DNA of 64,000 nt from an uncultured bacterium (GCA_963801165.1 CAWDDT010000005.1:544001-608000); one strand, 5' to 3'; positions 4,838 to 59,623 are shown, counted from the first letter of the stretch. Numbers and translations are program-made. Notes: generated from the letters alone by a model not told the origin.

Positions 4838-4885
4838 GTGGGCCCAGCTGGATTTGAACCAGCGGCCTCATCCTTATCAGGGATG
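4838..4885 (-). repeat. att site: duplicate of tRNA-Ile 3' 48 bp
   Basis: GTGGGCCCAGCTGGATTTGAACCAGCGGCCTCATCCTTATCAGGGATG vs 18720-18767 with one G/A difference. Confidence 0.93.
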
Positions 4886-4990
4886 ATCAAAGAGATCTGG
4901 CGACATTGGCGATGCGGCGATATCTCCTGTGTCACAGCGGATAACGTACCTCATTGGTTCGCATCATTTCTGGACGTTTCTCGTTCTCCC

Positions 4991-5010
4991 GTGGACGCGA
5001 TGTGGACGCG
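4991..5010 (+). promoter_or_regulatory. Putative integrase arm-type sites
   Basis: GTGGACGCG twice at 11-bp period; the same pair occurs at 18630-18648 at the other end of the element. Confidence 0.65.
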
Positions 5011-5331
5011 GGCAAGCTTGATCGCGCGAGGTGCGCCTCGAGACCCCTGTTCTTACGCCGTTCTTGGAGGTCTTGCCTGCCGGGACAAATCGGCGGAGAG
5101 CCTGGTTTTCCGGGCGATTCTGCCTCTCATCGTCTTTTGTCATTTCTCATGTTTGCGCCCGTTGCGGTCCAGGTGCGACCCAACTCGGGCGCGGAGGTAT
5201 TCGGCGGTGGCAGACATGTTGTACACGCCAATGGCACCGTGATCCCGGTACCGGGTGCCCTGGGGTTGGTGGGCTATCGCTGCCCTCCGGCTCCAAAGGA
5301 TGATGAGCAGCACACGCGTCGGCCGACCGTC

Positions 5332-6036
5332 TCATGGGCACTCGATCGCAGAGTTGACAGTCACCACATCTGCGATCAGAGGCTCTGGGTCGTCTACGAT
5401 CGCTACCTCCCATACGTCGTAGAGACTGCAGAGACCCTTTATGGTTGCGGCGTAGACTTCTCCGTCCTCCGTGGTGGCATGCCGCACTAGCACGGTGCTT
5501 CCATCGGTCCCTGTGCGTTCACCGATATCCTGCGCTTCTGCGCCGTCGCCGAACGCGAGAGCGATCGCTAGTTGCTCGTCACCGACGAAGGTAGCGAGCA
5601 GGGTGTAGATAGCGTCCTCCCTCACATATGTCAGCGCCGAGTACGGTGCCCCGTGGGGTTCGTCCCAACCGGGGTCCACCACTCCGAGGGCTTGCAGCGC
5701 AGTCTCGAGCACGCCGTCCAGCTCTGATCGGTCACGGGGCACCGTCGTAGCCGTCGAATCCCTTTCCATAGCAGTGGTTGTCGTTGTGCTCTCGTGGCCT
5801 CCGGTTGTCGTAATCAGATGTACGCCGGTGGTGGAAGTTGCCTGCGTGGTCTTGCTCGCATCCGCCGGGTCGCTATCAGATGAAGTCGGTGAGGTCTCCC
5901 CCGAACATGCCGCCAGGGCAATGATCATCGCGAGGATGATCAAGTAGCTAGGTCGGCGGAATGCTGAGGGCCTACAACGGCCGACGGGTATTGAGCGGCT
6001 CGACCGGTCCGGCGGTGTCTGGGTGATCGTCGTCAT
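5332..6036 (-). CDS. Lipoprotein, unknown function
   Basis: Lipobox LAAC after hydrophobic stretch, Thr-rich linker, AAGGA SD. Confidence 0.78.
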   Translation of the reverse strand: MTTITQTPPDRSSRSIPVGRCRPSAFRRPSYLIILAMIIALAACSGETSPTSSDSDPADASKTTQATSTTGVHLITTTGGHESTTTTTAMERDSTATTVPRDRSELDGVLETALQALGVVDPGWDEPHGAPYSALTYVREDAIYTLLATFVGDEQLAIALAFGDGAEAQDIGERTGTDGSTVLVRHATTEDGEVYAATIKGLCSLYDVWEVAIVDDPEPLIADVVTVNSAIECP

Positions 6037-6114
6037 TGTCCTTCTACTCCAGGGCGGTTGTGCGTCGCGTAGCGGACGAGCGGTCAGCTGAGTGCCAGTC
6101 CGCCACGCTCACTG

Positions 6115-6984
6115 CTACCAGAGGTCGCGACGGAATTGAGCCAATTCGTCCTCGTGCTCGGCGAGGAATGAGTAGTCGAATTCGAATATCGCTTTCTCGA
6201 AGACGGGACGCAGGTCAGAGTCGCACGAGGCATTCGCCTCGTACATCGCTCGCTCAAGCTCGAGCAGCTCTGCGTAGGCCTTGTGACTCAAGCCGAGAGT
6301 CTCGTCAATCTCCGCGTCGATTGCCTGATCCAACTGTCCAAGCATGTCCCCCAAGGATGACACGTCGAATCCGTTTGAAGACATGCAGTCTGCCCATTCG
6401 TGAATTGCTCTTGAAACCCTCGGGTCCGACTCGAGCGTCGAGGCACGCGCGGCCATGTATTCGATCCTGAGTGGAGCTATCGCCACGGCAAGGCCGGGCG
6501 TCATCCTGTACGCCGCTCCAGTGCAGCTGGCCGCGAAGTCCTCAGCCGATTGGCTCGGATTCTGCCAATCGCGGCCATAGAGGGCTTCGTAGTATCGAGA
6601 GCGTTCACCCGAATCGAGGGATTCGGCATACACGATGTTGGGGTCATCGCGCACCACTAGCCCGGTCTCATTTAGCTTGTCCCTGCTGAAGGATGTGACG
6701 AAGCCGAAGTACTCCTCCGGCTCATCACTGCCTGGCTCGAAGACATTGAAATCTGGAGCCAGCGGCACAAACGGCATACCCACGCCGTTCATACACTTCT
6801 GGATCGAGTCCTGGCGTGCTGTCTCCTCAGCGTCGAAGATGCTTCTCTCGATGTCCGGGTTGTGCCCCAGACCCACGTATTCCGCGAGGGGAGAGGTAGG
6901 CACGGTCTGGGCTCGGGCCGCCGTGCCAGCAACGACTCCAACGAAGGCGACTGCGGCCACAGCTACCAGCTTGGCTGTCTTCAT
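6115..6984 (-). CDS. Secreted protein with paired Cys (CM) motifs
   Basis: AAAGGAG SD, signal peptide MKTAKLVAVAAVAFVGVVAGTAARA; motifs QKCMNGVG, SCTG, WADCMSSNG, ASCD. Confidence 0.8.
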   Translation of the reverse strand: MKTAKLVAVAAVAFVGVVAGTAARAQTVPTSPLAEYVGLGHNPDIERSIFDAEETARQDSIQKCMNGVGMPFVPLAPDFNVFEPGSDEPEEYFGFVTSFSRDKLNETGLVVRDDPNIVYAESLDSGERSRYYEALYGRDWQNPSQSAEDFAASCTGAAYRMTPGLAVAIAPLRIEYMAARASTLESDPRVSRAIHEWADCMSSNGFDVSSLGDMLGQLDQAIDAEIDETLGLSHKAYAELLELERAMYEANASCDSDLRPVFEKAIFEFDYSFLAEHEDELAQFRRDLW

Positions 6985-7010
6985 TACTTGTGCTCCTTTC
7001 ATCGACGGCA

Positions 7011-7748
7011 CTAATAGATCAGGTTTCGCGGATAGCCGAGATATGTGTCCACTCCGTAGCCGATCCGCCACTGCCATGTCCGATTGCGTAGCCAGCTGAC
7101 TCCCAAGCTGTATGAGTGGTAGTCGGCTTCGACGTAAGCTGCCTTCGCGACGGTTTGTGTTAGCTCACCCAGGGAGTCGTACTGTGAGCAATCAGGCGTG
7201 TAGCAAATCTTGTCGCCAGTGCCTGGGCTCGAGGTCTTGAGCGCATCACGAAGGTCCTCGGCGAAGGCTACCTGGCTGGTGTATTGGTAGATTATGTGTG
7301 TTCCACCGTACGACGCAGAGGCCCCGCAGTCCTTTGTCTTGGCGTTGGAGTGAATCGGGATGTGGATGTCAGCACCCCAGGAGTTCGAGTCACTGATCTT
7401 CGTGCTGGCGCTCACTCCCCAGCGCACTTTGACGTAATAATGCCGGTCTAGTAGATCCGTGCCGTAGCCGGAAGCTGCCTCCACGGCTATGTCTGGGGCG
7501 CCTTCCGATACGCTGTCCTCAACGTAGCCGTCGCAGCCCACGTTTGCACCGCCGTGATAGGCCGGAGACAGATAGACCTTGTACTGGTTCCAGCCATTCG
7601 TCGGCCAATAGTAAGCACTGCCCGCCGAGGCCGGCTGGGCAGCGACAAGATTGCCCACGGCAAACGACGCACCAAAAGCAACCAGCATCAGAATTGCCAA
7701 GCGGACAGCCTTTCGGCGCAGCTTTGCTTTATCTGCGGCATTCATCAT
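7011..7748 (-). CDS. Secreted N-acetylmuramoyl-L-alanine amidase (Amidase_3-like)
   Basis: Signal peptide ending ASA; VYLSPAYHGG...E, SNSWGADIHIPIHSNA and AYVEADYH supply Zn ligands and the catalytic Glu. Confidence 0.82.
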   Translation of the reverse strand: MMNAADKAKLRRKAVRLAILMLVAFGASFAVGNLVAAQPASAGSAYYWPTNGWNQYKVYLSPAYHGGANVGCDGYVEDSVSEGAPDIAVEAASGYGTDLLDRHYYVKVRWGVSASTKISDSNSWGADIHIPIHSNAKTKDCGASASYGGTHIIYQYTSQVAFAEDLRDALKTSSPGTGDKICYTPDCSQYDSLGELTQTVAKAAYVEADYHSYSLGVSWLRNRTWQWRIGYGVDTYLGYPRNLIY

Positions 7749-7851
7749 GACCTCACTCGAATCTCGTTTGTCTCGAACACCGTTCGTCTCCCCTTTCCTT
7801 GAAGGTCTCGCAGATCAGGAACTCTCTTGCCTGCACCTCTCTGTCGTAATA

Positions 7852-7879
7852 CTTGGTCATGACCGCCCGATGGGTTCAG
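7852..7879 (-). promoter_or_regulatory. Putative ECF promoter motif A (variant) for the amidase operon
   Basis: Minus strand CTGAACC-N16-CCAAG, one mismatch in each half relative to the copies at 8083, 9269 and 14067. Confidence 0.5.
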
Positions 7880-8082
7880 GTCGAAGTGCCCGAATCCAAC
7901 GGCTGCGAGGCCACACGGAGGAGCTCGTTCAGGTCTACGCCCAAACGAGGGCGGGCCCAGCGCTACGGAGGATGGCCGTAGCGGCGCCGGACCCACCCCC
8001 ACATAGATGTTGATCTCAGCCTGTCTGGTGGTTCACCGACCGGAGTAGGCCTGGAGCCAGCCGAGTGATTGCAGCGATGACC

Positions 8083-8110
8083 GTGAACCGAATTGCGCCT
8101 GGAGTCAAAG
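8083..8110 (+). promoter_or_regulatory. Putative ECF promoter motif A
   Basis: GTGAACC-N16-CAAAG about 33 bp upstream of 8143; same spacing as the other copies. Confidence 0.65.
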
Positions 8111-8142
8111 TGCAGTGAGTCAGTCCAGATATTGATCGGAGG

Positions 8143-8679
8143 ATGGCCGTGACTGATTTCATTGTGCAGGCGCTCGCCGCGGCGGTAATCGCTGGGTCGC
8201 TTGGGCCTGCTACCCCAGCTGTCGTAGAGCAGCACTGCGTTGTCGAGGTTGTTGGTCAGGCAGAGGATGGGGAGTTGATCATGTCTGATCCGGTGTGCTT
8301 CGCCGGGTTCGCCGAGGCGATGAGCTACGCCTCTAGCGGTGAACTGGCGTTGCCGGACCAGATCGAGGGCTCTGCTGTGCTTGTGGACGCTGCGGTGGCT
8401 GCGGCGGTGTCGTCGTTCTCGATCGGCATCCACTACTCGGATTACAACGGTGGTGGAAGCTCCATGACCATCTCAGGGTCGGCGTGCACGGGTGGCTATT
8501 GGAATGCCACTGGCTGGTGGGCGAATCGGATCAAGTCGTCATACAACGGCTGTCCGAGGCTGCGCCACTACGACAGCCCGAACCTCGGCGGAGCTTCACA
8601 GACGACGTACACCGCGGGTCAGATCGACAATCTCTCGGCGTTGGCCGGGAAGGTCGAGTCTGTCCAGTATCTGCCGTGA
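8143..8679 (+). CDS. Secreted protein with N-terminal Cys pair and beta/gamma-crystallin-like (peptidase inhibitor I36-like) domain
   Basis: Hydrophobic leader; HCVV...PVCF; HYSDYNGGGS, WWANRIKSS, HYDSPNLGG, KVESVQY Greek-key-like motifs. GTG 8149 is an alternative start after GGAGG. Confidence 0.72.
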   Translation: MAVTDFIVQALAAAVIAGSLGPATPAVVEQHCVVEVVGQAEDGELIMSDPVCFAGFAEAMSYASSGELALPDQIEGSAVLVDAAVAAAVSSFSIGIHYSDYNGGGSSMTISGSACTGGYWNATGWWANRIKSSYNGCPRLRHYDSPNLGGASQTTYTAGQIDNLSALAGKVESVQYLP

Positions 8680-8682
8680 GTC

Positions 8683-9324
8683 TTGGTGGTGAACTCCTGT
8701 CGAGCGCCGTCCCACGGCGCTCGACATCGGGGTCGGCTGTATTCTCAGGCTGACTTGATTCCAGATTCTGATGTGATCGCTGCCTCGTTGGATGTTCCGG
8801 ATCGTTTCGGTGAGATCTTTGACCGGTACGGTCGACGTGTCTTCGGATATGTCGCTAAACGGATCCCCCGCGAGGATGTGGCCGATGTCACTGGTGATGT
8901 GTTCTTGCGCGCCTTTCGGATCCGACACCGGTACGACCTTGGTCGACCCGATGCTCTGCCGTGGCTGCTTGGTATTGCTACCAACGTGATCGGCGAGTAT
9001 CTCAAGAAGCGCAAGCGGAGAGCCAGAATTGGCCTACGTCCCGATGCTGCGACCGACCTGCCCGTCGAGGAGCTTGCGACCGAGCGGGCAGACGCGGCTC
9101 AGTCCAAGCCCCTCTTGGACCAGGCACTCGCTTCGCTCCATCCTCGTGACAGGTCTGTATTGATTCTCTACGCCGTCGAGGATCTGTCGTATCGGGAGAT
9201 CAGCGACGCTCTTGCCGTCCCGGTCGGGACCGTCAAATCGCGCCTGAACCGGGCACGAGCCGCCGCAAGTGAACGCATTAGTAGTTCGCGCCAAAGACCT
9301 TACGATGGACGCAGAAATGAATAG
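8683..9324 (+). CDS. ECF-family RNA polymerase sigma factor
   Basis: Region 2 FDRYGRRVFGY...DVTGDVFLRAF...PWLLGIATN; region 4 LSYREISDALAVPVGTVKSRLNRAR. Confidence 0.93.
   Translation: MVVNSCRAPSHGARHRGRLYSQADLIPDSDVIAASLDVPDRFGEIFDRYGRRVFGYVAKRIPREDVADVTGDVFLRAFRIRHRYDLGRPDALPWLLGIATNVIGEYLKKRKRRARIGLRPDAATDLPVEELATERADAAQSKPLLDQALASLHPRDRSVLILYAVEDLSYREISDALAVPVGTVKSRLNRARAAASERISSSRQRPYDGRRNE
9269..9296 (+). promoter_or_regulatory. Putative ECF promoter motif A inside the sigma gene, upstream of the anti-sigma gene
   Basis: GTGAACG-N16-CAAAG ending 8 nt before ATG 9305. Confidence 0.6.
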
Positions 9325-10300
9325 CAGACGCGATGCAGAGCTTGATGCTGCGGTACGCTCGCTTGTGGGCGATATCGTCCCCACCGATGCCGAACTCGCA
9401 TCGGTGCGCTCGCGACTTGAGGCCGCAATATACGAGGAACGCTACCGGCGCAAGGCTGGAGTTAGTTGGCGATACGCGTGGGCAGCGGGGGTTGTTGCGG
9501 TAGCTCTCGTTGTGACCGGTGCTGTCCTGTGGGCACGACCAGCGCCCCTGCAAGCCGCGCTCGCCGAATACGCCGAGATACTCCTCCAACAGGAACCGCT
9601 GCAACCACAAGCAGGCCAGTTCATCTACCAGGAATCCCACACCACCCAGCTGGCAGTGGTCGACGGATCAGAGCTACCCGACCTTGACGTAGAACAGATC
9701 GCATATCTGATCGTTGGAGAACGGCAGGTCTGGGTTGGTGCCGACAACACCATCGAGCTCGCCATAACCCCAACCGGAGTGGAGTTCTTCTCTGACGAGG
9801 CAGCCGCCGCCTACCAACATGCCGGGCTGGCAGAACTCGACGGTATCGGTGTTACCACCACCGTCACCCAACAATCGCAACTCTTCCCTGACCTGCCCCA
9901 AACACCAGAAGAACTCGAGCAATACCTCCGCGAACAGGCCCGTCTCGGAGGAGGCGTGCTGTCCGAGGACGAACACCTCTTCAACCTCCTAGCGGCGGTC
10001 CTCGCCGATCCCACCATCCCAAACAGCTCGAAAGCTGCCGCCGCAGATGTGATCGGCACCATCAAGGGCGTGAAACTCGTGGAACGGACCGACAGCCATA
10101 TCACTCTGGCGTTGGAGTACACCGACCTCGGTCAGGTGCAACGAACCCTCACTCTCGATCTCACCGCTCCCCAACTCGCATCCGACACGACCGAGCTTCT
10201 CGGTGCCCTCGACGAACTCGACATACCGACTGGGACCATCATCGACGAGACACACTACGAGCCGTCGATCACCACAACATCCGGTTTCCCACCGAGGTAG
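9305..10300 (+). CDS. Putative membrane anti-sigma factor (CU044_5270-like)
   Basis: Overlaps sigma stop; short cytoplasmic N-terminus, one TM helix (WAAGVVAVALVVTGAVLW), extracellular domain with GQFIY, LPQTPEEL and KAAAADVI motifs. Confidence 0.78.
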   Translation: MDAEMNSRRDAELDAAVRSLVGDIVPTDAELASVRSRLEAAIYEERYRRKAGVSWRYAWAAGVVAVALVVTGAVLWARPAPLQAALAEYAEILLQQEPLQPQAGQFIYQESHTTQLAVVDGSELPDLDVEQIAYLIVGERQVWVGADNTIELAITPTGVEFFSDEAAAAYQHAGLAELDGIGVTTTVTQQSQLFPDLPQTPEELEQYLREQARLGGGVLSEDEHLFNLLAAVLADPTIPNSSKAAAADVIGTIKGVKLVERTDSHITLALEYTDLGQVQRTLTLDLTAPQLASDTTELLGALDELDIPTGTIIDETHYEPSITTTSGFPPR

Positions 10301-10771
10301 TAGAGAGGAACTTTCTGCCCAAAGGTGCAATGCCGCTTGCTCGGCAATTGTCGGCCGGGCGGCTGCGGCGATCAGAATGTGTTGGCAACGCGTTGGTACA
10401 GTCTTTCGTTGTTCACCCAGCGTCTCCATCCGTTGCCGGTGGGGTCCGGAAGTGGCATGACCTCGACTCGGGGGTTCTCCGACAATCTGATGATCGCGGG
10501 GTACCTGCTGCATGTCCTCGACGACCGCCGAGCGACCTGGTCTAGATTCGATAAGCAGCAATCCGGAATCACGGGTCGTGGACAGCAGAGCACACGTTCG
10601 AGGGCTTGCGCAGCCACGTGCCGCAGAGCCTCCACACTCTCAGGACGATTCCGGGGCCGCGCCGCCTTTCGTTGCCGCTGCGAGCGCGGCGGTTGTGGAA
10701 CAGCTGATATGTTCCGCTCGGTGGCAATACCCATACCCGGGGGCGGCGGCTTCGTGAGAATGGCTACCGTC

Positions 10772-11926
10772 CTAGCCGTGGCTTGCGCTCGCGCGATTCA
10801 GCTCCCACACTGTCACTCCATCGTGGTCAATGACGCCAATGTAGGGATCGCCGGACACCGGGTCGAGTCCCAGACTGTTCGGTGTACCCGGGTTCCGGCC
10901 CCCAAATGGATCCGGTATCGGAAGTGCGCGCACAAGGTTCCCAGACCGATCGATTTCTACGTAGGCGCCTATTCCAACTTCCTCGTTGATCTCGGAGAAT
11001 CCAGCCAGCAGCAGATGCAGCGAACCCTGGCGATCGGCGATCACCTCTACAACCGCAAAGACATCTCCACCATCGATCGACGTCATCTCGAGATCGACCA
11101 ACATGGCTGGCTGTGCGTCCGGGAGTGACATACGAACAACTGCGGGATTGCTGGGGTCGGCGGCAAGGCGATAGCGGGAGCCTGCCGGGGTCCGCAGATA
11201 GTCAACCGCCTCGGCAACGAGCGCCCCGTCTTCTATCGCAACCGCAAAGAATCGGGACCCGAGCGTTTCACGTCCAAATACGACATCGCCGTCGTTGTTG
11301 ATGAGGCTCAACAGCCTGTCGCTTTCCTGGTAGGTGATGCGATTGCCAATGATTGTCGCCAAACGCATGTTCGTGGATGAGGCAATAGCGGTCCCGTCGC
11401 TGAGTATCTGCAAACCGGAGAGGGGAGCTTCGTGGGCAATGTCTACCGAATCGAAGAAAGATCCGTCGCGTCCGTACCGGGCGATTCGATCCTTGTAGTT
11501 ATCGAGTATCCACCACCGGCCGAGGAGGTCAAGCGCCACCGGCAGTTCGGGACCCCACGGCTCGTTGACGGAATCCCCGTTCCCGAGCAAGGACTCGTCG
11601 CTCCCATAGCCAAGCGACAGCGCCACTTGCCAATCCTCCGCGAGCGAGAACGGCGTGAGGGAAACGTCATAGTGACGAGTAATCGGATCGAGGCCTACCG
11701 TTGCGGGCGCGACAGTAGTTGTCGAGGTGGTAGTTGGTTCGTCGATTCCGACGTTCTGTGTGGGAACCGTTGATGACCCGGTGTCCTGTATGGCTCCCGT
11801 CGAGCGGGAGGTTCCGGGAGGCACCGGTGGCTCGCTGGTCTCGCTGCACCCAGCGAGACCAGCGAGGACCACGACGAATACCAACCCGAGCTTGAGCGTC
11901 AACTGCAAGTGCCGTCCCAAAGACAT
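10772..11926 (-). CDS. Lipoprotein with NHL-like beta-propeller
   Basis: Lipobox LAGC, Thr linker; GYGSDESLLG...WGPELPVALDLLGRWWILDNYKDRI is paralogous to a segment of 12567-14036. Confidence 0.78.
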   Translation of the reverse strand: MSLGRHLQLTLKLGLVFVVVLAGLAGCSETSEPPVPPGTSRSTGAIQDTGSSTVPTQNVGIDEPTTTSTTTVAPATVGLDPITRHYDVSLTPFSLAEDWQVALSLGYGSDESLLGNGDSVNEPWGPELPVALDLLGRWWILDNYKDRIARYGRDGSFFDSVDIAHEAPLSGLQILSDGTAIASSTNMRLATIIGNRITYQESDRLLSLINNDGDVVFGRETLGSRFFAVAIEDGALVAEAVDYLRTPAGSRYRLAADPSNPAVVRMSLPDAQPAMLVDLEMTSIDGGDVFAVVEVIADRQGSLHLLLAGFSEINEEVGIGAYVEIDRSGNLVRALPIPDPFGGRNPGTPNSLGLDPVSGDPYIGVIDHDGVTVWELNRASASHG

Positions 11927-12570
11927 CCTCCCCAGCGACGTACGCCGGTGAAGGACGAATCACCTCGGTAGGTCCTGACCCATAACCCGGTGCCATCCGC
12001 CTCGCCCTTGGCTTCGATGATGTTGTCGGTGTTCCAGGTCGATGTTGTGGAGTAGATCATCCCAATATGCGAACTCGAAGCCAGCGCATCCATGTAGATG
12101 GTTGACGCCTTGCTGATCTGAGACAGATTTGGGCCGTCTCCTGCTTTGAATTCCGAGGCTGTAAAGGCCCCGTGGATGTTTCTGAGTTGCGGCCAGTATC
12201 TGTATCCGGTCGACGTTTCATTGTCAACCAGAGCCCAAGATTTGAATGTGAATCCCGAGCAATCGCCGCCCTCGCCATGCGTACTCGCAGTCTTAACGGG
12301 ATCGCCGGGTTGGTCATCGATGTTGTTGTTGTTCCAACAGCCGCCGTACCAGTGATACCCCTCATAGCGAGCCACATAGGAGTAGCTGCGAGCAGACGAG
12401 CGATTCCAGGACGAAAGGCTGTAGTCCGTATCCGTGTTGCAGTTGTCCCAGAAGCCATGGGCCGCTGCCTCGGGCGCGTCGATCGCGCTAACGGCAATAA
12501 GCCCCACGAGGAGACCAACGAAGAATCGGACGATGTGGAGGCGCCCGATGTAGCGAATGTGGTGTGTCAT
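11899..12570 (-). CDS. Secreted NlpC/P60-like cell-wall peptidase
   Basis: Signal peptide ending AAA; GGDCSGF (Cys), SHIGMIY (His), IIEAKG (third residue). Confidence 0.78.
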   Translation of the reverse strand: MTHHIRYIGRLHIVRFFVGLLVGLIAVSAIDAPEAAAHGFWDNCNTDTDYSLSSWNRSSARSYSYVARYEGYHWYGGCWNNNNIDDQPGDPVKTASTHGEGGDCSGFTFKSWALVDNETSTGYRYWPQLRNIHGAFTASEFKAGDGPNLSQISKASTIYMDALASSSHIGMIYSTTSTWNTDNIIEAKGEADGTGLWVRTYRGDSSFTGVRRWGGCLWDGTCS

Positions 12571-14036
12571 GACAAGCCTCCAATCTCGAAACGTGCAATC
12601 CAGAATCCAAGTTCATCGTTGCGCAGCTGGTAGAGGCCATTGGGACCAACCTCGAATCGTCCCAGCACCGAGCTGTCCGCCCACCGTGAAGCGTCGACTG
12701 CGAAATGCTCCGTTGACCCATCAGCGTTCAGCACAATGACCTCGAAGACGGCGTCGTTGTCGGTCCAAGTCCGGATGACGACCAGCAAGCGCCCGTTGAC
12801 AATCTCGGCTAGCTGAACTTCGCCGATTTCCCGGTCACTTGTGATACTCCACACAGATCGAATTGAACCCCCACTGATGAGAGCGAAGAGCGCGTGGTCG
12901 CTGTCGGCTGACACGACAAGCTGAGGTTCGGCCAGATCAATCGAGCCGGTCGCCAGCGCACCGTCAGACTCTGACGTGACTCCCGCCTCAGCGCTGGTTA
13001 CCTCAACGAGTCCGCCGATTTGAGCAGCGTCCCTGGTTCTCAAAGGTACTCCAACCGGTGCATTCTCGAGCTGGTCTGGTCGAGCAACCGGTGTGGCATC
13101 GTAAAACGTCGTTGCCCACACACTCCTCGTAGCATCGTGGAGTACCACGCTAGAGTCGATCGCTTCGAGCTTCTCCGGAAGAACATCAGCGAGGAAGCTG
13201 GTCGAGAGGAGCGCGCCTCCCGGGTCGTATGCGGTGATCTTCGGATGGATGCCCGCGCCACCATCGAGAACGAAACGCGTCCCGTCGTCACCTATCGCCA
13301 GATCGGCCAATCCTCCTGTGTGCTCAATAGTCTGAACCTCCGGAGTGCTCGCGCCGCTTGACCACGTGAGCAAGCGGCCGTTAACGCGGTCCAAGACGAC
13401 CAAGGCACCATCGGGATCGAATGCGAACGCGGCTGGACCCTGAACATCTGATTCGTGGCCACCGGTGACACCAAACTCGTTAATCCCATCACCCCATCCT
13501 CCTGAGACGATGATCTCTTCTGGCGGAGTAGCTGATGGGGATGCGGGTAGATGGGTATGGACAGCCGTGCTGTAGCTCCACGCTTCGTGAAACAGGTCAC
13601 GCCGATCCGGTACGCGCACTGTCTCTCCAGTTGCAGTGTTTGAGATTTCCGCGTAGTACTGGAAGCCGTTGTCGGTCACCTGTGGCGGGATGGTTGCTTC
13701 GAGGATAGGGGGGTACTCCCCGGGCTCAAGACTGATTCTCTGGAACGAGTCTGACCCTTGGCTCCTTACGAACACGAAGCCTTCGACGTCACACAGCATG
13801 TCACCGCGTTCGAATGCCTCTTCATCCCAAGCGCAGACAGTGTCATACACAAGCGAGACCGGCTCACCTCGTTCGACCAATACCGGCTGCTTGTGAAACG
13901 CCTGGAATCCTTCCGTTGATGTCGCCAGTCCACGGCTCTGGCCGATGACAATCAAACCTCCTACAGTGACCCCGAGGGCTAGGCCCACTGTCGCGGGCCA
14001 CCGCACGAGTCTCGAGAAAAGCTGTCCCTTGCGCAC
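12567..14036 (-). CDS. Secreted/membrane-anchored protein with NHL-like beta-propeller
   Basis: GGAGG SD then GTG 14036 (track start 14057); N-terminal TM; GGWGDGINEFG...QGPAAFAFDPDGALVVLDRVNGRL. Confidence 0.78.
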   Translation of the reverse strand: MRKGQLFSRLVRWPATVGLALGVTVGGLIVIGQSRGLATSTEGFQAFHKQPVLVERGEPVSLVYDTVCAWDEEAFERGDMLCDVEGFVFVRSQGSDSFQRISLEPGEYPPILEATIPPQVTDNGFQYYAEISNTATGETVRVPDRRDLFHEAWSYSTAVHTHLPASPSATPPEEIIVSGGWGDGINEFGVTGGHESDVQGPAAFAFDPDGALVVLDRVNGRLLTWSSGASTPEVQTIEHTGGLADLAIGDDGTRFVLDGGAGIHPKITAYDPGGALLSTSFLADVLPEKLEAIDSSVVLHDATRSVWATTFYDATPVARPDQLENAPVGVPLRTRDAAQIGGLVEVTSAEAGVTSESDGALATGSIDLAEPQLVVSADSDHALFALISGGSIRSVWSITSDREIGEVQLAEIVNGRLLVVIRTWTDNDAVFEVIVLNADGSTEHFAVDASRWADSSVLGRFEVGPNGLYQLRNDELGFWIARFEIGGLS

Positions 14037-14066
14037 AATTCCTCCATTCCTCGACAACGTTGATGT

Positions 14067-14094
14067 CTTTGCCGTGAATCGTCGACTGGTTCAC
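14067..14094 (-). promoter_or_regulatory. Putative ECF promoter motif A for the propeller-NlpC/P60 operon
   Basis: Minus strand CCGTGAACC-N16-CAAAG, about 30 nt upstream of the 14036 start; both halves identical to the 8081-8110 copy. Confidence 0.65.
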
Positions 14095-14175
14095 GGATCT
14101 CATCTCCAAGCGAAGCCTCTCGGCGCGGCCAGAGGAGATCGGGACGAGCGGGCAGGTGACGCTCTGCGGTCGTGA

Positions 14176-16836
14176 TCAAGGATGAATGTCGAGGCCACAC
14201 TCATGTCCATGTTCATGGTCAATGGCCGCCGGTCGCATCCGGCTGCGGGCGAACATTGCGGAAACGTCATCAGCTCCGGGTTGCCGTGTTCGGTGGGTGA
14301 GGTGGGTGCATTCTTCCCGGCCGGGTTCGCGGGTGGCAAGGTAGAGGGTGTTGGCGTTGCGCCCCCGGCTGAGGGCGACGTAGGCCCATTCCCGGTCGGT
14401 GGTTCCGGTGATGACGGTGAAGGTACGTCCGGTCGTGATGCCTTGGGCTTTGTGGGCGGTGAGGGCGTATCCGTACCCGACATTCCCGTCGGTGAGACAC
14501 CAACCCGGAAGCTCTCGGGTTTCGGGGTCTCGGTCGAGACGAACCGTAACGGTTCCGGCTTTCTGGTCGACGGCGGTGATGGTGCCGAGGTCGCCGTTGA
14601 GGACATCGAGGTGGTGTTGGTTTCGGCGGCAGAGGATCCGGTCACCGGCCTGGAGAACCACGCCCGACGCTTCGTGTGTGGGTCCGTGGAGGCGTCCGGA
14701 GGTGGCGAGGTGCTGGCGTGCCTTTTCGTTGAGTTCGGTGACGGTGTCGTTGTCGTGGGCTAGGAGCATTGCCGAAGCGATGTCACCCGCTCTCTGGACG
14801 TGCCGGTACCAGTCGCTGCTCGCTTGTGCAATCGTGTCGGTGCGGGTGCGTCCGAGGATGAGGCGCCGATGCTCGGCATAGGCTTGCATTGCTTGTTGTA
14901 CTGATCCGTTGCGGAGCTCGTCGAGTGCTTGGCGTTCCCAGGCCGCCTGTTGACGAACGTTGTCGGTGAGTTCGACGGCTGGTAGCCGGTTGGCGAGGGC
15001 ACGGAATAGGCCGCCAGCGTCGATCTCGGGGAGTTGCTTGTAGTCCCCGATCAGGATCAGTTTCCCTTGTGCTTGTTCGACCAGGTCGACGACGGCGGCG
15101 AGTTGCCGGGTGCCGACCATGCCGGCCTCGTCCACAACCACAACAACACCGGTAGGAAGGCCGGACCCGTGGAGGAGCCGGGCGAGGGTGGTGGAGGGGA
15201 CGCCGGTGTCGGTTTGTAGGCCGGCTGCGGTGCGGGCGGCAAGCGCGGCACCGATGATGGGTCGTCTGGTGAGTTGGGCGAGTTGGTTGATGACGGCGAC
15301 GACTGCTGTTTTGCCGCTGCCGGCGGGGCCGATACCGATGTCGATGCTGTTGCCGGAGGTTGCGAAGCTGCGCACCATCTGGCGTTGCCCTTCGGTGAGT
15401 TCCGGTCTGTGCCGTAGCCAGGTTTCCACGAGACGCCGGGGTGCCTGCCAGCGGCCCTGACCTACACCGGCCATTGCGTATTCGATGATCCGCTGTTCGG
15501 TGGCGAGGAGTTCTGCGGTGGTGTAGCTGGGCAGCGCTGGCGCGGGGAACGGCGCACCGTCACGGGTTCGCATCGCAATCACCGCTCCCTCGACGAGTTC
15601 TCGATCCTCCGGCTCGGCGGGCGAATCCGCCTCGTCCCCGGTAGCGGGTTCGAGTTGAGGGCCGGGTAGCAGTGGGATGATGTCACGGCCGGTGAGGAAT
15701 GAGTTGGCGAGGGTCTCGATCTCAGCCCGGGTGCCACCCTCGGGGAGTGCCGCGGCGATGTGTTGGATGACTTCTGGTGTGGCGAATGTCGACCTGTGGG
15801 CGGTGAGCCCGTCTGGTGACGCCAGATCCGCAAACAACGCTCCCACATCTGGTGTGGTGACCCGTCTGCTGCGATCGACGATCCGACTGATCCTCTCCGG
15901 AGTGAGACCCACCTTTGCGGCTCGTCGCTGCCAGACCGCTTCCAGCTCGTCGAGGGGACGGTTGGTCTTGGTCGTGCGGGTGGCGATCACCGCCACCTGC
16001 CGCGCCGCCGCCGTATCCGGAAGACCCTCTTCCTGTCGCCAGGCTTCGAGCTGTCGACGCCGCTGGGAGAACGCTTCGATCTGGGTACGGGTGAACCCGG
16101 CAATATCGGCGACACCGTGATGTACCGGCTGCCACCGCACCCCGAGCCGGTCCGTGAGCTCCCGGCGCAACACTGCCTCATGCAGGTAGCCGGCGGCGAG
16201 CTGATGCCGATACAACAGTCGACCGTCGATAGTCCGCCACACCCCATCGACGCCGTTGACCGTGTTGGCAACGACGACATGGGTGTGTAGCTGCGGGTCG
16301 TCGGCCCGTGACGTGTATTCGGTGAACGCCGCCGCCACATACCCCGACGTCGCGATCGGCCAGGTCTCTACCCGATACCTCGGTCGCCCATCCGGGCCAC
16401 GAACCCGATTTCCGTTCTCGTCGACGACCGGTGTCTTGGTGGCGCCACGAGTGTCGGATGCCACCGACTCCAGATAGCTGAAAGCCTGTGACGTTGCCTC
16501 GCCGAACGCCTCCAGGACCTCTTTGCGGGTGAGTTCGTCACCCAGCGCCCACAACAGCGACACCGACTTGTCCGCCGAGAAGGTCACATCCCACGCCGCC
16601 ACCCCGTCCGTGCGGAGACGACGCCCCAACTGCTCACCGGTGCCGGGATGGTTCCCGTCGAACAGCCGCACCAGACCCTCCGCCGACACACTGCCCGCAA
16701 GGCCCAACTCGGCGGCTCCCGACCCGCACCAACGACCGGTGGCGGTGCCGCCGCGCAGGTAGTAGTCCTCCCGCGGTGAGATCTCACCCAGCTTCTGCAG
16801 GTAATAGTCCTTGACCGCCTTCGCCAGACTCAACAC
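14176..16836 (-). CDS. MobF (TrwC/TraI-like) relaxase with C-terminal helicase
   Basis: N-terminal DYY..DYY tyrosines, DVTFSADKSVS, TSRADDPQLHTH (HUH), Walker A GPAGSGKT, VVDEAGM, YALTAHKAQG. Confidence 0.95.
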   Translation of the reverse strand: MLSLAKAVKDYYLQKLGEISPREDYYLRGGTATGRWCGSGAAELGLAGSVSAEGLVRLFDGNHPGTGEQLGRRLRTDGVAAWDVTFSADKSVSLLWALGDELTRKEVLEAFGEATSQAFSYLESVASDTRGATKTPVVDENGNRVRGPDGRPRYRVETWPIATSGYVAAAFTEYTSRADDPQLHTHVVVANTVNGVDGVWRTIDGRLLYRHQLAAGYLHEAVLRRELTDRLGVRWQPVHHGVADIAGFTRTQIEAFSQRRRQLEAWRQEEGLPDTAAARQVAVIATRTTKTNRPLDELEAVWQRRAAKVGLTPERISRIVDRSRRVTTPDVGALFADLASPDGLTAHRSTFATPEVIQHIAAALPEGGTRAEIETLANSFLTGRDIIPLLPGPQLEPATGDEADSPAEPEDRELVEGAVIAMRTRDGAPFPAPALPSYTTAELLATEQRIIEYAMAGVGQGRWQAPRRLVETWLRHRPELTEGQRQMVRSFATSGNSIDIGIGPAGSGKTAVVAVINQLAQLTRRPIIGAALAARTAAGLQTDTGVPSTTLARLLHGSGLPTGVVVVVDEAGMVGTRQLAAVVDLVEQAQGKLILIGDYKQLPEIDAGGLFRALANRLPAVELTDNVRQQAAWERQALDELRNGSVQQAMQAYAEHRRLILGRTRTDTIAQASSDWYRHVQRAGDIASAMLLAHDNDTVTELNEKARQHLATSGRLHGPTHEASGVVLQAGDRILCRRNQHHLDVLNGDLGTITAVDQKAGTVTVRLDRDPETRELPGWCLTDGNVGYGYALTAHKAQGITTGRTFTVITGTTDREWAYVALSRGRNANTLYLATREPGREECTHLTHRTRQPGADDVSAMFARSRMRPAAIDHEHGHECGLDIHP

Positions 16837-17017
16837 GAGACACCGCCTGAAGCAACTGGTTGCAGATGCGTGTGTCGATCAGGCCGTCGGTACAGTCGAA
16901 GCGGTACGAGTGCCGTGGCGACGATTGCGGTCGTGCCTGCTCGAGGCTGGTCGCAGACGGATCTTCCGCAAAGGTTCGGGTCTGGCCAGAGTCTCATAGC
17001 TCCGACTAGACACCCTG

Positions 17018-17192
17018 ACCCTCTCACCAGAGTCTCAAAAACCCTCCACAAATCCTGTCCAAAACCCTGTCAACCGATCCCGGCCGGCCCGCCACCAAGA
17101 AAAACCTCACCCGCCGAAATCGCCCGCCAAATCGGCGTTTCCGACCCAATGACAGGTCCAAGTGCAGCGAAATGGGACTCTGGTGAGAGGGT
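17018..17192. repeat. 20-bp inverted repeat between the divergent relaxase and xis-int genes
   Basis: ACCCTCTCACCAGAGTCTCA (17018-17037) vs reverse complement of 17173-17192 (1 mismatch); partial copy CCAGAGTCTCA at 16986-16996. Confidence 0.8.
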
Positions 17193-17211
17193 TGGACTTC
17201 ATGCTCAGAGG

Positions 17212-17412
17212 ATGGAACGTCTCGATCGGCTCCTCACTGTCCAAGAACTCGCCAACTACCTCGGAGTGCCCGTATCGACCATCTACGCGTGGCGATACCG
17301 ACACGAAGGTCCACCCGGCTTTCGCGTCGGTCGACACGTGCGCTTCCGGCGGAGCGACGTCGAACGGTGGCTCAACGATCAGCTCGACAAGGTTCGAGGA
17401 CAAAGAACTTGA
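17212..17412 (+). CDS. Excisionase-like helix-turn-helix protein
   Basis: MERLDRLLTVQELANYLGVPVSTIYAWRYRHEGPPGFRVGRHVRFRRSDVERWL, directly upstream of the integrase. Confidence 0.9.
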   Translation: MERLDRLLTVQELANYLGVPVSTIYAWRYRHEGPPGFRVGRHVRFRRSDVERWLNDQLDKVRGQRT

Positions 17413-17546
17413 AGAAGTGCCGGGGGCAATAGGCGAAGTCGGTGGTAGTTCTGACAGTCGCCTGCAACTTGCATGGCGATCTTGAGGGTGGCGCCACCTC
17501 GGACATGGGGGTACGGTCGGCGGAGGAGCTCCAGGAGGTAGACGAC

Positions 17547-18716
17547 GTGGGTTCGGTACGAAAGGTGAAGCATCGATCCGGCAAGGAGAGCTGGCAAGCA
17601 CGGTGGCGGGACCCGTCGGGCACGGACCGTTCCAAGAACTTCGACCGGAAAGTAGACGCCAGCCAATACCTCGTTGGCTTGGAGTCCGACAAGCTCCGCG
17701 GGCGTTACACCGACCCTCGTCTTGGCCGGACCAAGCTCGCCGGATGGATCCGGGAATGGCAGGCCACACGGACGAACCTGAGTCCTCAGACGCGTCTCCG
17801 TGACGAAGCCTCGATTCGCAATCACGTGCTCCCCGCATTCGGTACCGTTCCGATCGGGCAGCTCCGGCCGGCGCATGTCGCACGGTGGGTTGCGGACCTC
17901 GACGCCAACGGCTCAGCGCCGGCCACCACCCGCAAGGCCTACCAGCTTCTAGCTGCCGCACTGTCCGACGCAGTGGACAATGGGCTCATCCCGCTATCGC
18001 CATGTAGGAACGTGAAGCTCCCCAAGCTCACCTCCCCGGAGATGAGGATTCTCGAGCCGGCAGAGATCAAGGCTCTGGCCGGTGCCGTCGACGAGCGCTA
18101 CCGAGCGATGATCCTGGCCGCGGCGTACACGGGGCTACGTTTTGGTGAACTTGCCGCTCTTCGGATAGAGCGATTCGACGCCCTGCGGAGGACGATCCGA
18201 GTGGAGGAAAGCCTCGCTGAGATCCGAGGGCAGTTCATGGTGAAACCGCCGAAGTCGGACGCCTCTCGCCGGATGGTCTCAGTGCCGTCGTTCGTAGTCG
18301 AGGAGCTGGCGCAACACCTAGCTGAACATGCCGACGGTTCCGGCCTCGTTTTCAATGCACCGTCTGGTGGTCCGATCCGACGTACGAACTTTCGACGACG
18401 GGTATGGCTTCCGGCGGTCCGAGCGTCGGTCGGAGAGCCGTGCACCTTTCACGATCTCCGACATACACACGCTGCACTTCTCATCGCCGTGGGTGAACAC
18501 CCGAAAGTCATCCAGGGACGGCTCGGTCACGCGTCGATCAAGACCACTCTCGATACCTACGGGCACCTCTTCGAGGGGCTCGATGAGGCCGCCGCGGATC
18601 GTCTCGACAAGGTGTGGCGCACCGCTGCTGTGGACGCGGTGTGGACGCAGCGAGATCGGGAGATAATCGAGTTCACAGGCAGAAAACCAAAACCCCTTGC
18701 GGGGCAAGGGGTTTGA
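17547..18716 (+). CDS. Tyrosine recombinase/integrase
   Basis: Arm-binding N-terminus WQARWRDPSG..RSKNF; TGLRFGEL, HDLRHT, LGHASIKTTLDTYGH; GGAGG SD before GTG 17547. Confidence 0.96.
   Translation: MGSVRKVKHRSGKESWQARWRDPSGTDRSKNFDRKVDASQYLVGLESDKLRGRYTDPRLGRTKLAGWIREWQATRTNLSPQTRLRDEASIRNHVLPAFGTVPIGQLRPAHVARWVADLDANGSAPATTRKAYQLLAAALSDAVDNGLIPLSPCRNVKLPKLTSPEMRILEPAEIKALAGAVDERYRAMILAAAYTGLRFGELAALRIERFDALRRTIRVEESLAEIRGQFMVKPPKSDASRRMVSVPSFVVEELAQHLAEHADGSGLVFNAPSGGPIRRTNFRRRVWLPAVRASVGEPCTFHDLRHTHAALLIAVGEHPKVIQGRLGHASIKTTLDTYGHLFEGLDEAAADRLDKVWRTAAVDAVWTQRDREIIEFTGRKPKPLAGQGV
18690..18714 (-). terminator. Intrinsic terminator downstream of tRNA-Ile
   Basis: Perfect 11-bp stem AAACCCCTTGC-GGG-GCAAGGGGTTT with a T-rich tail on the minus strand. 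Confidence 0.75.
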
Positions 18717-18717
18717 C

Positions 18718-18795
18718 TGGTGGGCCCAGCTGGATTTGAACCAGCGACCTCATCCTTATCAGGGATGCGCTCTAACCGAGCTGAGCTATGGGCCC
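18718..18795 (-). tRNA. tRNA-Ile (GAT)
   Basis: GGGCCCATAGCTCAGCTCGGTTAGAGCGCATCCCTGATAAGGATGAGGTCGCTGGTTCAAATCCAGCTGGGCCCACCA folds as a cloverleaf; CCA encoded. Confidence 0.97.
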
Positions 18796-48279: not shown

Positions 48280-48363
48280 GGAGGGATGGCCGAGCGGACG
48301 AAGGCGACGGTCTTGAAAACCGTTGAGGTAACACCTCCGTGGGTTCGAATCCCACTCCCTCCG
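48280..48363 (+). tRNA. tRNA-Ser (TGA); integration site of element 2
   Basis: GGAGGGATGGCCGAGCGG...ACGGT-CTTGAAA-ACCGT...GTTCGAATCCCACTCCCTCCG. Confidence 0.95.
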
Positions 48364-48366
48364 CTT

Positions 48367-48399
48367 AGCGAAAAGCCCTGCTACACAGGGCTTCTCGCT
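48367..48399 (+). terminator. Hairpin after tRNA-Ser(TGA)
   Basis: AGCGAAAAGCCCTG-CTACA-CAGGGCTTCTCGCT. Confidence 0.65.
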
Positions 48400-49601
48400 G
48401 TATGCGAGTCGATCGGCAGCACCGCCGCAGCGGCCCCCGGGGCGCGCTCGGGGCGCGATAGGGGCGCGGGAGAATCGCTCGAGCTTTGATGGGGGCGCAT
48501 CTGGGGCGGTGTGGTGGCGGCGATGTAGCGACGGTCGAGCGCATCGGAGAGGGCATCGAGGTCGTCTTCGTAGAGGTGTCCGTATAGGTCGAGCGTCATC
48601 GCTGCTGAGGCGTGACCGAGCTGACGCTGTACCGCTTTGATGTTGGCGCCGGACGAGATCATGAGTGAGGCGGCGGTGCCGCGTAGGTCGTGGATGCGGA
48701 GTTGCTCGAGGCCTGCTGTTTCGATGGCCGGTACCCAGACGGCCTGCCGGAACGGGGAGGAGCGGAGTGGGCCGCCTTTTGGTGCGGTGAAGACGAGCCC
48801 GTCGTCGGTGATGGTGCCGAGGTGTGCGGCGAGACGATCGGCGAGGAATGCAGGCATGGTGACGAGACGCCGTTCGTGGGTTTTGGGTGTTCCCCACGAG
48901 AGACCCGACCCGAGTTCGGTTGCTGATTCGGCGATCTCGATGCGACGCCGCAGCAGGTGGATACGTGGTCGCCGCAAGGCGACGAGTTCGCCCCATCGCA
49001 TCCCGACCCATGCCAGGGTCTCGATGATGAGCCCGGATCCGGTCTGAGTGTTCTCGGCGGCTGCGGCGAGGGCGGTGACTTGTTCGGCGGTGAGGAAGCG
49101 CTGCTCGCGGCGCCGCACCGTCCGGACCTTCACCCCGGAGGTTGGGTCGCGGGCCAGGATCCCGTCGTTGACGGCCAGCTTGAGCGGTGCTGATAGGACT
49201 TGTTTGGCTTGTTTGATCCGTGACGCAGAGAGCCCGCCGGTGGTCATGTCGGCGATCCATTCCCGCACCATGGCCGGCGAGATGCGGTTGACCGGCAGAT
49301 CCCCGAACACGGGTAGCACGCGTGAGCGGAGCAGCGACTCGTACCCGGCCCGGGTTTTGGGTTTGATGTCCAACCCGGAGAGCCAGGCGTCGGCGGCTTC
49401 GGCGAGTGGGATGTCTCCGGCTTCGGGAGCGATCCAATCGCCCCGGTCGATTGACCCGAGCCTGGCAACCAGCCAACGGTCGGCGTCGACTTTCCGGTCG
49501 AAGCTACGAGAGCGGATGCGTCCGTCGGGACCTCGATAGCGGGCTCGCCAGCGTCTACCGGTTCGTCCCTGCCGGTCTTCGATCCAACCGGAGCGTCTCA
49601 T
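48381..49601 (-). CDS. Tyrosine recombinase/integrase
   Basis: WRARYRGPDGRIRSRSF, GMRWGEL, HDLRGT, LGHASAAMTLDLYGH; GGGAGGG SD. Confidence 0.95.
   Translation of the reverse strand: MRRSGWIEDRQGRTGRRWRARYRGPDGRIRSRSFDRKVDADRWLVARLGSIDRGDWIAPEAGDIPLAEAADAWLSGLDIKPKTRAGYESLLRSRVLPVFGDLPVNRISPAMVREWIADMTTGGLSASRIKQAKQVLSAPLKLAVNDGILARDPTSGVKVRTVRRREQRFLTAEQVTALAAAAENTQTGSGLIIETLAWVGMRWGELVALRRPRIHLLRRRIEIAESATELGSGLSWGTPKTHERRLVTMPAFLADRLAAHLGTITDDGLVFTAPKGGPLRSSPFRQAVWVPAIETAGLEQLRIHDLRGTAASLMISSGANIKAVQRQLGHASAAMTLDLYGHLYEDDLDALSDALDRRYIAATTPPQMRPHQSSSDSPAPLSRPERAPGAAAAVLPIDSHTARSPV
48439..48509 (+). promoter_or_regulatory. Putative integrase arm-type repeats
   Basis: GGGGCGCG at 48439, 48450 and 48461 (11-bp period), plus GGGGCG at 48492 and 48503. 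Confidence 0.55.
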
Positions 49602-49727
49602 AAGGTTCTCCCTCCCTACGTCTCGATGCTGCATCTACTCGTATCCATAACACGGAATCCGGTGTGGCGGGCTGTCGATCCATCGCCGGCCACAACTCTG
49701 AGACGGTATGACGGCGAGTTCACGTTT

Positions 49728-53899: not shown

Positions 53900-53962
53900 C
53901 AGCCGCGTCCGGTTGTCCACCTGGTGTCAGCCGTTGGGGGGACGGGGCGTTATCCTGCCGCG

Positions 53963-58927: not shown

Positions 58928-58948
58928 GTCCCCCCTCAGGACGGCAGG

Positions 58949-59548: not shown

Positions 59549-59623
59549 AGTCTGTGTCTCTCCTTTGCTAAACGGCGCCTGGCATCGCGCCGGCGCAGCA
59601 ACAGAACCACGCCTATCAGGATG

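Follow-up and report, generated by a model that had tools for sequence, protein, structure and literature searches.

A three-gene unit of a crystallin-like, putatively secreted protein, an ECF sigma factor and an anti-sigma candidate in Acidimicrobiia

A stretch of 64,000 nucleotides from an uncultured bacterium (GCA_963801165.1, CAWDDT010000005.1:544001-608000), called here the window, was analysed with regard to a three-gene unit that occurs in it twice. The unit encodes a putatively secreted protein (A), an extracytoplasmic function (ECF) sigma factor (S) and a single-pass membrane protein that is an anti-sigma candidate (R), and the order A-S-R is the same in copy 1, on the plus strand, and in copy 2, on the minus strand (Table 1). 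An original prediction, made from the sequence alone, had described this recurring order, and both gene content and coordinates were borne out at the two sites. By a whole-genome search we found a third full copy at G000:C5:615082-617276 (positions 7082-9276 of survey locus L005), about 7 kb past the window end. Its A, S and R proteins are 45%, 41% and 27% identical to those of copy 1, and therefore the three components have diverged together. The host is a soil actinobacterium with three copies of the unit, two of them on mobile islands, and the unit is a real, conserved system, widespread in its class (Acidimicrobiia) and apparently undescribed.

Table 1. Features discussed in the text, in window coordinates (ORF, open reading frame; aa, amino acids; nt, nucleotides).
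Feature	Position	Strand	Remarks
A1, putatively secreted two-domain protein	8143-8679	+	178 aa ORF, hydrophobic N-terminus
S1, ECF sigma factor	8683-9324	+	Longest ORF; real start probably more downstream
R1, single-pass anti-sigma candidate	9269-10300	+	343 aa; ORF start overlaps S1
Type-1 ECF-type promoter-like motif, GAACC-N14-GTCAAA	8085-8109	+	58 nt 5' of A1 start codon
A2, putatively secreted two-domain protein	58949-59548	-	199 aa ORF
S2, ECF sigma factor	58292-58927	-	Pfam r2, r4_2, Sigma70_ECF
R2, single-pass anti-sigma candidate	57547-58371	-	ORF; six-Cys ectodomain
Type-2 promoter-like motif, TGTCGCCGAC-N13-CGGACAC	59623-59655	-	5' of A2, in the region common with the divergent LuxR-like gene
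LuxR-type helix-turn-helix (HTH) protein	59747-60307	+	Weak Pfam GerE, HTH_23; divergent from A2
Putative MacB-like pump operon	61565-64000 and beyond	+	Divergent from A2
PG_binding_1/lipoyl-like adaptor	61565-62587	+	Pump operon; relatives in 29/80 type-2 loci
MacB/LolD-like ATP-binding cassette (ABC) ATPase	62434-63216	+	Pump operon; relatives in 24/80 type-2 loci
394-aa membrane protein, putative permease		+	Pump operon; no family match; extends past window end
Island 1 (13.9 kb), with copy 1	4838-18795		
Direct repeat, 48 nt	4838-4885		3' part of tRNA-Ile, 98% identity
TrwC relaxase	14176-16836		Island 1
Integrase	17442-18716		Island 1
tRNA-Ile	18718-18795		Island 1
Island 2 (~19.7 kb), with copy 2	48280 to ~68046		
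tRNA-Ser(tga)	48280-48364		Island 2
Integrase	48381-49634		Island 2
TrwC relaxase	49925-52672		Island 2
Mutator-family transposase	55448-56797		Island 2, beside copy 2
Tyrosine integrase, C-terminal fragment	56869-57351		Island 2, beside copy 2
Repeat, 87 nt	67961-68046		Island 2; 95% identity

Components of the unit

Group IV (ECF) sigma factors measure about 200 aa and have sigma-2 and sigma-4 domains only; the corresponding Sigma70_r2 and Sigma70_r4_2 were found in S1, S2 and S3, and the scores against TIGR02937 were 82.1, 71.9 and 86.4 bits, respectively (cut-off 42.9). S1 and S2 share 28% identity (E 4e-7). The genome contains 45 ECF-like ORFs, and a tree was calculated with the 39 that span both sigma domains. 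S1, S2 and S3 fell into a single clade of six sigma factors (support 100/99), the other three being the sigmas of paralogous S-R pairs without A; within the clade, S1 and S3 were placed with one of these A-less paralogues and S2 with two. In all three copies a single-pass membrane ORF overlaps or abuts the stop codon of the sigma gene, which is the arrangement of a co-encoded anti-sigma factor, and one membrane helix was predicted in R1. The genes of the unit adjoin or overlap one another, with a gap of 21 nt between A2 and S2 and an S/R overlap whose extent varies with the chosen start codon.

R1 and R2 gave no Pfam match, to anti-sigma or zf-HC2 models or to any other, and no BLASTP similarity was detected between them. 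When their profiles were compared, only about 38 residues of the cytoplasmic N-terminus could be aligned (probability 92.5%, E 4.9e-7), in keeping with the dissimilar anti-sigma ectodomains reported in the original prediction; judged by these profiles, the R1-type and R2-type ectodomains are unrelated. The typing of R proteins rests on the clean alignment, as the iterated R1 profile drifted onto the N-terminal segment held in common with R2-type proteins. R1 and R3 resemble the NCBIfam family NF038083 (CU044_5270 family), which bears no functional name, with E values of 8.9e-18 (65 bits) and 2.5e-11 (44 bits); they differ from it in that these scores lie under the cut-off of 100. In an alignment of 48 R2 relatives six cysteines are invariant (C106, C130, C155, C173, C206 and C242). 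The AlphaFold2 (AF2) model of R2 (predicted local distance difference test, pLDDT, 84.7) showed two short cytoplasmic helices, a transmembrane (TM) helix at residues 70-94 and an alpha/beta ectodomain. For the fold of the latter, Foldseek returned nothing at E<=0.001, the best Z in the wide VIA search was 4.2 and came mostly from the TM helix, and the Protein Atlas gave no usable match. The class I anti-sigma domain is an N-terminal, four-helix, zinc-binding domain of about 90 aa, often with an H-x3-C-x2-C motif. It was considered for R and rejected: the cytoplasmic part measures about 50-70 residues, has two short helices in the R2 model and contains no conserved Cys or His among the 48 relatives. 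A short class-II-like mode of binding is possible. We infer the anti-sigma role of R from its position, its topology and the N-terminal motif common to both types.

The secretion of A is suggested by its hydrophobic N-terminus and by its homologues. BLASTP of A1 against A2 was not significant (E 0.016, in a different register), while the alignment of the two family profiles with hhalign (25 and 56 sequences) reached a probability of 94.5% (E 7.9e-8) over 121 columns, which begin at the second N-terminal Cys and extend as far as the C-terminus. The alignment paired PVCF with PECF, HYSDYNGGG with LYDGTSYTG, NRIKSS with NQKTSS and KVESV with DVSSV, the same motif register in which the homology of A1 and A2 had been proposed in the original prediction. 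A foreign protein (L105) matched both family profiles. On this profile evidence A1 and A2 are remote homologues. The A1 family comprised 24 clusters, and the A2 family 132 clusters at 90% identity; with the A2 profile (E<=1e-3), 793 clusters at 50% identity were collected, so that type 2 alone makes A a sizeable nameless family, for which no Pfam model passes its threshold and NCBIfam has no model. Four Cys are invariant in each of the two family alignments, two in each domain.

The AF2 model of A2 (pLDDT 83.7) consists of an N-terminal domain at about residues 40-90 (four strands and a helix), which bears a Cys pair, a disordered linker and a C-terminal domain at about residues 112-199. The fold-search lists for the whole protein were dominated by the C-terminal domain and not by the N-terminal one. 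Foldseek gave 2bv2_A with a probability of 1.00, a TM score of 0.85 and a root-mean-square deviation (rmsd) of 1.9, and with VIA the C-terminal domain was superimposed on 2bv2 with Z 14.1 and rmsd 1.5 over 81 residues and on Protein S with Z 11.9. The scores were lower for MiAMP1 (Z 8.3), the Streptomyces tendae antifungal protein (Z 6.2), SKLP (Z 5.6) and the Williopsis killer toxin (Z 5.5). As modelled, the C-terminal domain of A2 is a beta/gamma-crystallin of the two-Greek-key superfamily, and that of A1 is placed as crystallin/I36-like through its profile alignment to A2; the label crystallin-like, given from the sequence alone, thus held for A2 directly and for A1 by way of A2. Across Protein S, clostrillin, flavollin and Ciona crystallin the match extended over about 80 residues (Z 11.9-14.1, rmsd 1.5-1.7). 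A2 has in common with these beta/gamma-crystallins stretches resembling Y-x4-Y-x-G and N-N-x-x-S-S, which we take to be crystallin fold and Ca2+ motifs. It differs from them in the additional conserved N-terminal Cys-pair domain, in a crystallin score below the Pfam cut-off and in the fixed operon partnership with an ECF switch, a partnership that the literature searched does not describe. The Ca2+-binding motif of beta/gamma-crystallins is N/D-N/D-x-x-S/T-S, and similar sites are seen in A2 (NQKTSS and NNDVSS), A1 (ANRIKS and AGKVES) and A3 (DNRISS and DNKAES); by their sequence they look partly canonical. A search of solved structures by sequence gave no match with the A2 profile and only chance-level matches with the A1 profile.

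Linkage and control regions

The genomic neighbourhood of A was surveyed separately for relatives of A2 (type 2) and of A1 (type 1), a survey that had been suggested together with the original prediction. For type 2, the best 80 of 116 A2 relatives in species-representative genomes were taken; for type 1, a sample of 401 genomes of the class yielded 30 loci, two of them the copies of this genome and one (L093) from an unpublished genome (G254). An ECF sigma gene adjoins A on the same strand in 77 of the 80 type-2 loci, the order being A-S-R in 48 and S-R-A in 29 (in L012 it was set by hand, the sigma ORF running open to the contig end), and the three misses (L036, L072 and L077) are contig ends on the relevant side. 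An R2-type ORF is present in 76 of the 80. For type 1 the sigma gene adjoins A in 28 of 30 loci, and of the two exceptions, L111 is cut by a contig end and L112 is a spurious match of 18 residues. Pooled, an ECF sigma gene stands beside A in 105 of 110 loci, which represent both gene orders and many genera. The A2 relatives are 34% to 82% identical, so the loci are not near-identical copies of one element. Together with the third copy, this linkage upheld the earlier claim that the unit is a system and not a coincidence.

The reverse search was carried out with an R2-type profile over the same 401 genomes and gave about 29 strong full-length matches. Eight R2-type regions without a nearby A match were examined (L117-L124). 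Six hold an S-R pair without A even at E<=10 (L117, L118, L119, L121, L122 and L123), and in L124 A is divergent from S-R. Among type-1 loci, S-R pairs without A were seen in L125, L126, L127 and L129; L128 has only 575 nt of upstream sequence, so the count is four to five. Three paralogous S-R pairs without A were found in this genome. The linkage is therefore one-way: A depends on S-R, and S-R does not depend on A. The anti-sigma candidates of the distant type-1-like loci L106-L110 match neither R profile, and A accompanies at least two unrelated ectodomain families plus anti-sigmas that match neither profile.

Some loci of the survey showed particular arrangements. L120 (G082:C4:313000-320000) has both a complete A-S-R operon and, back-to-back with it across a common intergenic region, an S-R pair without A. 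A type-1 triad is present twice on one contig (L095 and L114, G098:C59:31500-35030 and 53936-57466), 22 kb apart and with identical scores, which suggests a repeated element or a recent duplication. In the distant S-R-A loci L107, L108 and L110, A is followed by a conserved 283-aa ORF in which an acyl-carrier-like stretch was recognised by eye.

Promoter-like motifs were found 5' of A in both types. The type-1 motif, GAACC-N14-15-G.SAAW, lies on the coding strand 54-103 nt 5' of the A start in 19 of 29 type-1 loci, among them the S-R-A loci L107, L108 and L110, where it comes directly past the R stop codon. With both strands counted there were 51 matches, where shuffled sequences gave 9.4 on average; the motif is too short for calling a genome-wide regulon. 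The type-2 motif, CGC(G)GAC-N12-15-YGGACM, was found 5' of A in 25 of 44 A-S-R loci; 17 of the 44 have its mirror image on the opposite strand, facing the divergent LuxR-like gene. It also occurs within the 3' end of S, before R, in 11 and after R in 9, with 84 matches in total versus 7.8 in shuffles. In this genome the site 5' of A2 is the sole such motif near the triads, and a genome-wide scan gave one convincing site only, from which no regulon could be read. The type-2 S-R-A loci have GGAACA...GACACT-like motifs 5' of S, as seen by eye. Those motifs that lie 5' of A may function as promoters. For positions 57400-60400, around copy 2, four DNA runs from one study and no RNA data set are listed.

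The form of the type-2 motif in the sigma 3' end is CGCGAC-N13-CGGACA, about 100 nt before the anti-sigma start and with a spacer whose sequence varies among loci (L008, L009, L012, L014, L016, L017, L021, L031, L032, L034, L038, L040 and L041). It may be an internal promoter for separate expression of the anti-sigma.

Considering the genes next to the type-2 units, relatives of the LuxR-type protein were found in 30 of 80 loci, mostly divergent and directly 5' of A. Where the order is S-R-A, the adaptor and ATPase genes of the pump come straight after A on the same strand, and L122 shows the order S-R-adaptor-ABC without A. The ATPase matched TIGR03608, the lactococcin-972-type bacteriocin exporter, below threshold (E 3.3e-38). 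As to the control of secreted effectors put forward in the original prediction, the only conserved candidate targets found are A and, in type 2, also the LuxR-like gene and the MacB-like pump operon; the control region facing both suggests a defence or envelope-stress regulon in type 2.

The role of A

The reading that we favour, tentatively and with a confidence close to even but short of it, is that A serves an autoregulated envelope switch as an extracytoplasmic output, dispensable and dependent on the sigma factor, and is not its signal. R would hold S at the membrane through the short cytoplasmic N-terminal segment common to both types, and the variable ectodomain of R would be the input of the switch. 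Released S would drive its own operon from the ECF-type promoter directly 5' of A, and A, co-transcribed with S-R as a Sec-secreted two-domain protein, would be made and exported when the switch fires. With its disulfide-stapled N-terminal domain and its crystallin domain, A might be envelope-protective, possibly Ca2+-binding, inhibitor-like or antimicrobial. The operon structure and any biochemical activity of A are what we infer here. Output is the best single reading because the dependence is one-way, the inputs are varied, A lies between the regulators and the pump, and motifs stand 5' of A; in the S-R-A loci, the place of A between the regulators and the adaptor and ABC genes puts it in the position of an output. 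The crystallin fold modelled for the C-terminal domain of A2 would suit an effector.

Several observations weigh against an output. Near-obligate linkage in two gene orders is more typical of co-regulators, and effectors are often encoded elsewhere. Between the types A has diverged past BLAST detection while S keeps 28% identity, and the divergence of A tracks the R ectodomain over S, the partial correlation of A with the ectodomain given S being 0.55 and that of A with S given the ectodomain 0.22. This was calculated over 60 type-2 triads, and the value was reached in 0 of 500 permutations; as evidence the correlation is weak, since the sequences compared are related to one another and A and R are both extracytoplasmic. 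The divergence of A between the types, with S better kept, is what co-adaptation to a replaced ectodomain would produce. The fold evidence comes from the A2 model, with A1 placed by profile alignment only. The Pfam model Crystall_3 scored 15.7 bits with A2, under its cut-off of 27.3, and gave no match with A1; PF03995 Inhibitor_I36 likewise remained under its cut-off of 21.1 with A1 (16.3 bits, E 0.0095) and A2 (13.5 bits, E 0.073). The motifs are consensus matches only, and the LuxR-like protein might just as well have its operator in that of type 2.

In the original prediction A was a ligand or co-sensor of its anti-sigma. This was not supported: S-R pairs of both types without A, the unrelated ectodomains and the motifs 5' of A agree with an optional output no less well than with a receptor partner. 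By analogy with RseB or CnrX, A could still be a co-sensor or feedback modulator on its cognate R ectodomain, presenting a signal or shielding the ectodomain from site-1 cleavage, and we consider this a possible, if somewhat doubtful, reading. It would agree with the fact that A was never away from S-R where DNA was available (the 105 of 110 loci in two gene orders), with the joint divergence of A, S and R between copies 1 and 3, with the weak partial correlation mentioned above, and with A being the component that diverged most between types, just where the ectodomain was exchanged. Sigma dependence of A is compatible with it as well, rseB being itself dependent on sigma-E. What speaks against it is the number of A-less S-R pairs, which occur in both types in at least 10 loci besides the three paralogues of this genome, and the need for one homologous A family to bind several unrelated ectodomains. 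A fusion of A with an anti-sigma was found neither among the top 150 representatives of the A2 family (113-270 aa) nor in a search for longer proteins with the A1 profile, a weak kind of search. Complex prediction of A2 (residues 34-199) with the R2 ectodomain (residues 97-268), both given as alignments, scored 0.27 and 0.30 against a mark of 0.32, in runs without controls, and is counted on neither side. We regard it as rather unlikely that A is the dedicated partner of the anti-sigma ectodomain, as a co-receptor or a Ca2+- or protease-sensitive shield that co-diversified with swapped sensors, the triad then being a self-contained signal-receptor-sigma cassette of Acidimicrobiia that is portable by horizontal transfer. 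If A does act on the anti-sigma, ECF signalling would have an extracellular accessory of a new type, and a partnership with the anti-sigma would give a bacterial beta/gamma-crystallin a signalling role for the first time.

Alternatively, A may be secreted as an antimicrobial or for competition, in the manner of killer toxins and antifungal proteins; the type-2 pump would then give self-protection, regulation would come from the ECF switch and the LuxR-like protein, and the unit would be a typical cargo of integrative elements. MiAMP1, the S. tendae antifungal protein, SKLP and the Williopsis killer toxin in the fold list (Z 5.5-8.3), the sub-threshold match of the ATPase to a bacteriocin exporter, the island location of copies 1 and 2 and the patchy presence of A across the class would suit this. 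We find it improbable, however, considering that the matches to classical Ca2+-binding crystallins are far stronger (Z 12-14), that the type-1 loci show no conserved pump within the DNA examined, and that a Sec-type N-terminus of A would make an ABC exporter needless. It is very improbable that A only hitch-hikes beside a common sigma/anti-sigma pair and that A1 and A2 are alike by chance. The non-significant BLASTP result and the abundance of ECF-like ORFs in the genome would allow it, but it conflicts with the profile-profile probability over 121 columns, the short or overlapping intergenic distances and the conserved motifs 5' of A, and it is contradicted by the linkage counts across many genera, in loci that are not near-identical copies.

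ECF sigma/anti-sigma pairs are a major signalling device of bacteria, and only a minority of their inputs and outputs are known. In RpoE-RseA-RseB of E. coli and CnrH-CnrY-CnrX of Cupriavidus, one autoregulated operon encodes an ECF sigma, a single-pass anti-sigma and an extracytoplasmic third protein. Our unit has the same three-component plan; RseB and CnrX differ from A in fold and bind their anti-sigma, which A would do only in the co-sensor reading, and unlike them A is dispensable in many related loci and paired with unrelated ectodomains. In another kind of ECF operon, oatA sits within sigV-rsiV. The sigV-rsiV-oatA type of operon carries its own effector, and resembles our unit in being autoregulated with an output gene by the sigma and anti-sigma; it belongs to Firmicutes and has another effector family and another anti-sigma (PMC5014341). 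In the CaBP-sigV circuit of Caulobacter, too, a periplasmic Ca2+-binding protein is encoded beside an ECF sigma; that protein is of the EF-hand kind instead of a crystallin, each gene is monocistronic and has a promoter of its own, the host is a proteobacterium and no anti-sigma has been identified (PMC13171946). A also resembles the peptidase inhibitor I36 (SMPI), considering the sub-threshold PF03995 scores and that both are actinobacterial proteins with disulfides, SMPI being secreted and A putatively so; PF03995 is carried by the nearest clusters in the Atlas. SMPI is absent from the A2 fold-search lists, and A scores below the gathering threshold.

No description of the A-S-R triad was found in our literature searches, in agreement with what the original prediction had said of its novelty; in the main text of the ECF reclassification paper and in the part of its supplement that was covered, an incomplete check, there is no mention of crystallin, I36, PF03995 or Acidimicrobi. 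An ECF sigma with an anti-sigma and a third extracytoplasmic protein is thus known in principle, and the A family and its fixed partnership were not found described. A is almost never away from one ECF subgroup and supplies it with a third component that is defined and can be tested; it also places bacterial beta/gamma-crystallins in a regulatory setting, and the two types offer candidate orthogonal promoter/sigma pairs with distinct motifs.

Islands and neighbouring genes

Copies 1 and 2 lie in tRNA-integrated islands that carry a tyrosine integrase and a MobF/TrwC relaxase (Table 1), so that ECF switches travel as cargo. The transposase next to the integrase fragment suggests that island 2 may consist of two elements, of which one was interrupted by the insertion sequence. 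The proposal that MobF elements spread the unit stands in part: it agrees with these two islands and not with copy 3, which lies outside both, nor with the short flanks of the surveyed loci, where TrwC matches were found in 4 of 110 (3 of 109 without the locus from the unpublished genome). Integrase relatives were seen in the same flanks in 4 of 110 loci. The distribution is patchy, with the A1 family in 27 and the A2 family in 20 of the 401 class genomes, and neither was found in a genome of the same genus (G372, 95% complete).

Next to copy 3 lie genes for a chemoreceptor, a hydrolase and a serpin. The last of these (L005 10930-12297, minus strand) encodes a full-length serpin (Pfam Serpin, E 1.9e-104) and lies by the alpha/beta hydrolase gene, directly 3' of the unit. 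Between the LuxR-like gene and the pump genes beside copy 2 there are two plus-strand ORFs (60550-60927 and 60753-61541) with signal-peptide-like N-termini and without a family match. One would give a mature protein of about 75 aa with two Cys; the other has 262 aa, and its relatives were found in 9 of 80 type-2 loci.

On the left side of island 1, a further perfect copy of 25 nt of the tRNA-Ile 3' part is present at window coordinates -3356 to -3332 (G000:C5) and hints at an older or tandem island. Just outside island 1, at 38-2962 on the minus strand, lies the gene of a 974-aa AAA_16/STAND-type ATPase with a C-terminal LuxR (GerE) HTH. Within the island, a type-1-like motif (GAACC-N..-GGCAAA, 14068-14092, minus strand) stands directly 5' of a 496-aa ORF (12567-14057) that heads a minus-strand gene row; the row is convergent with copy 1, and its last gene (10772-11926) encodes a DUF7485 protein. 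The motif may belong to another target of S1 or be due to chance, about 0.1 matches per kb being expected.

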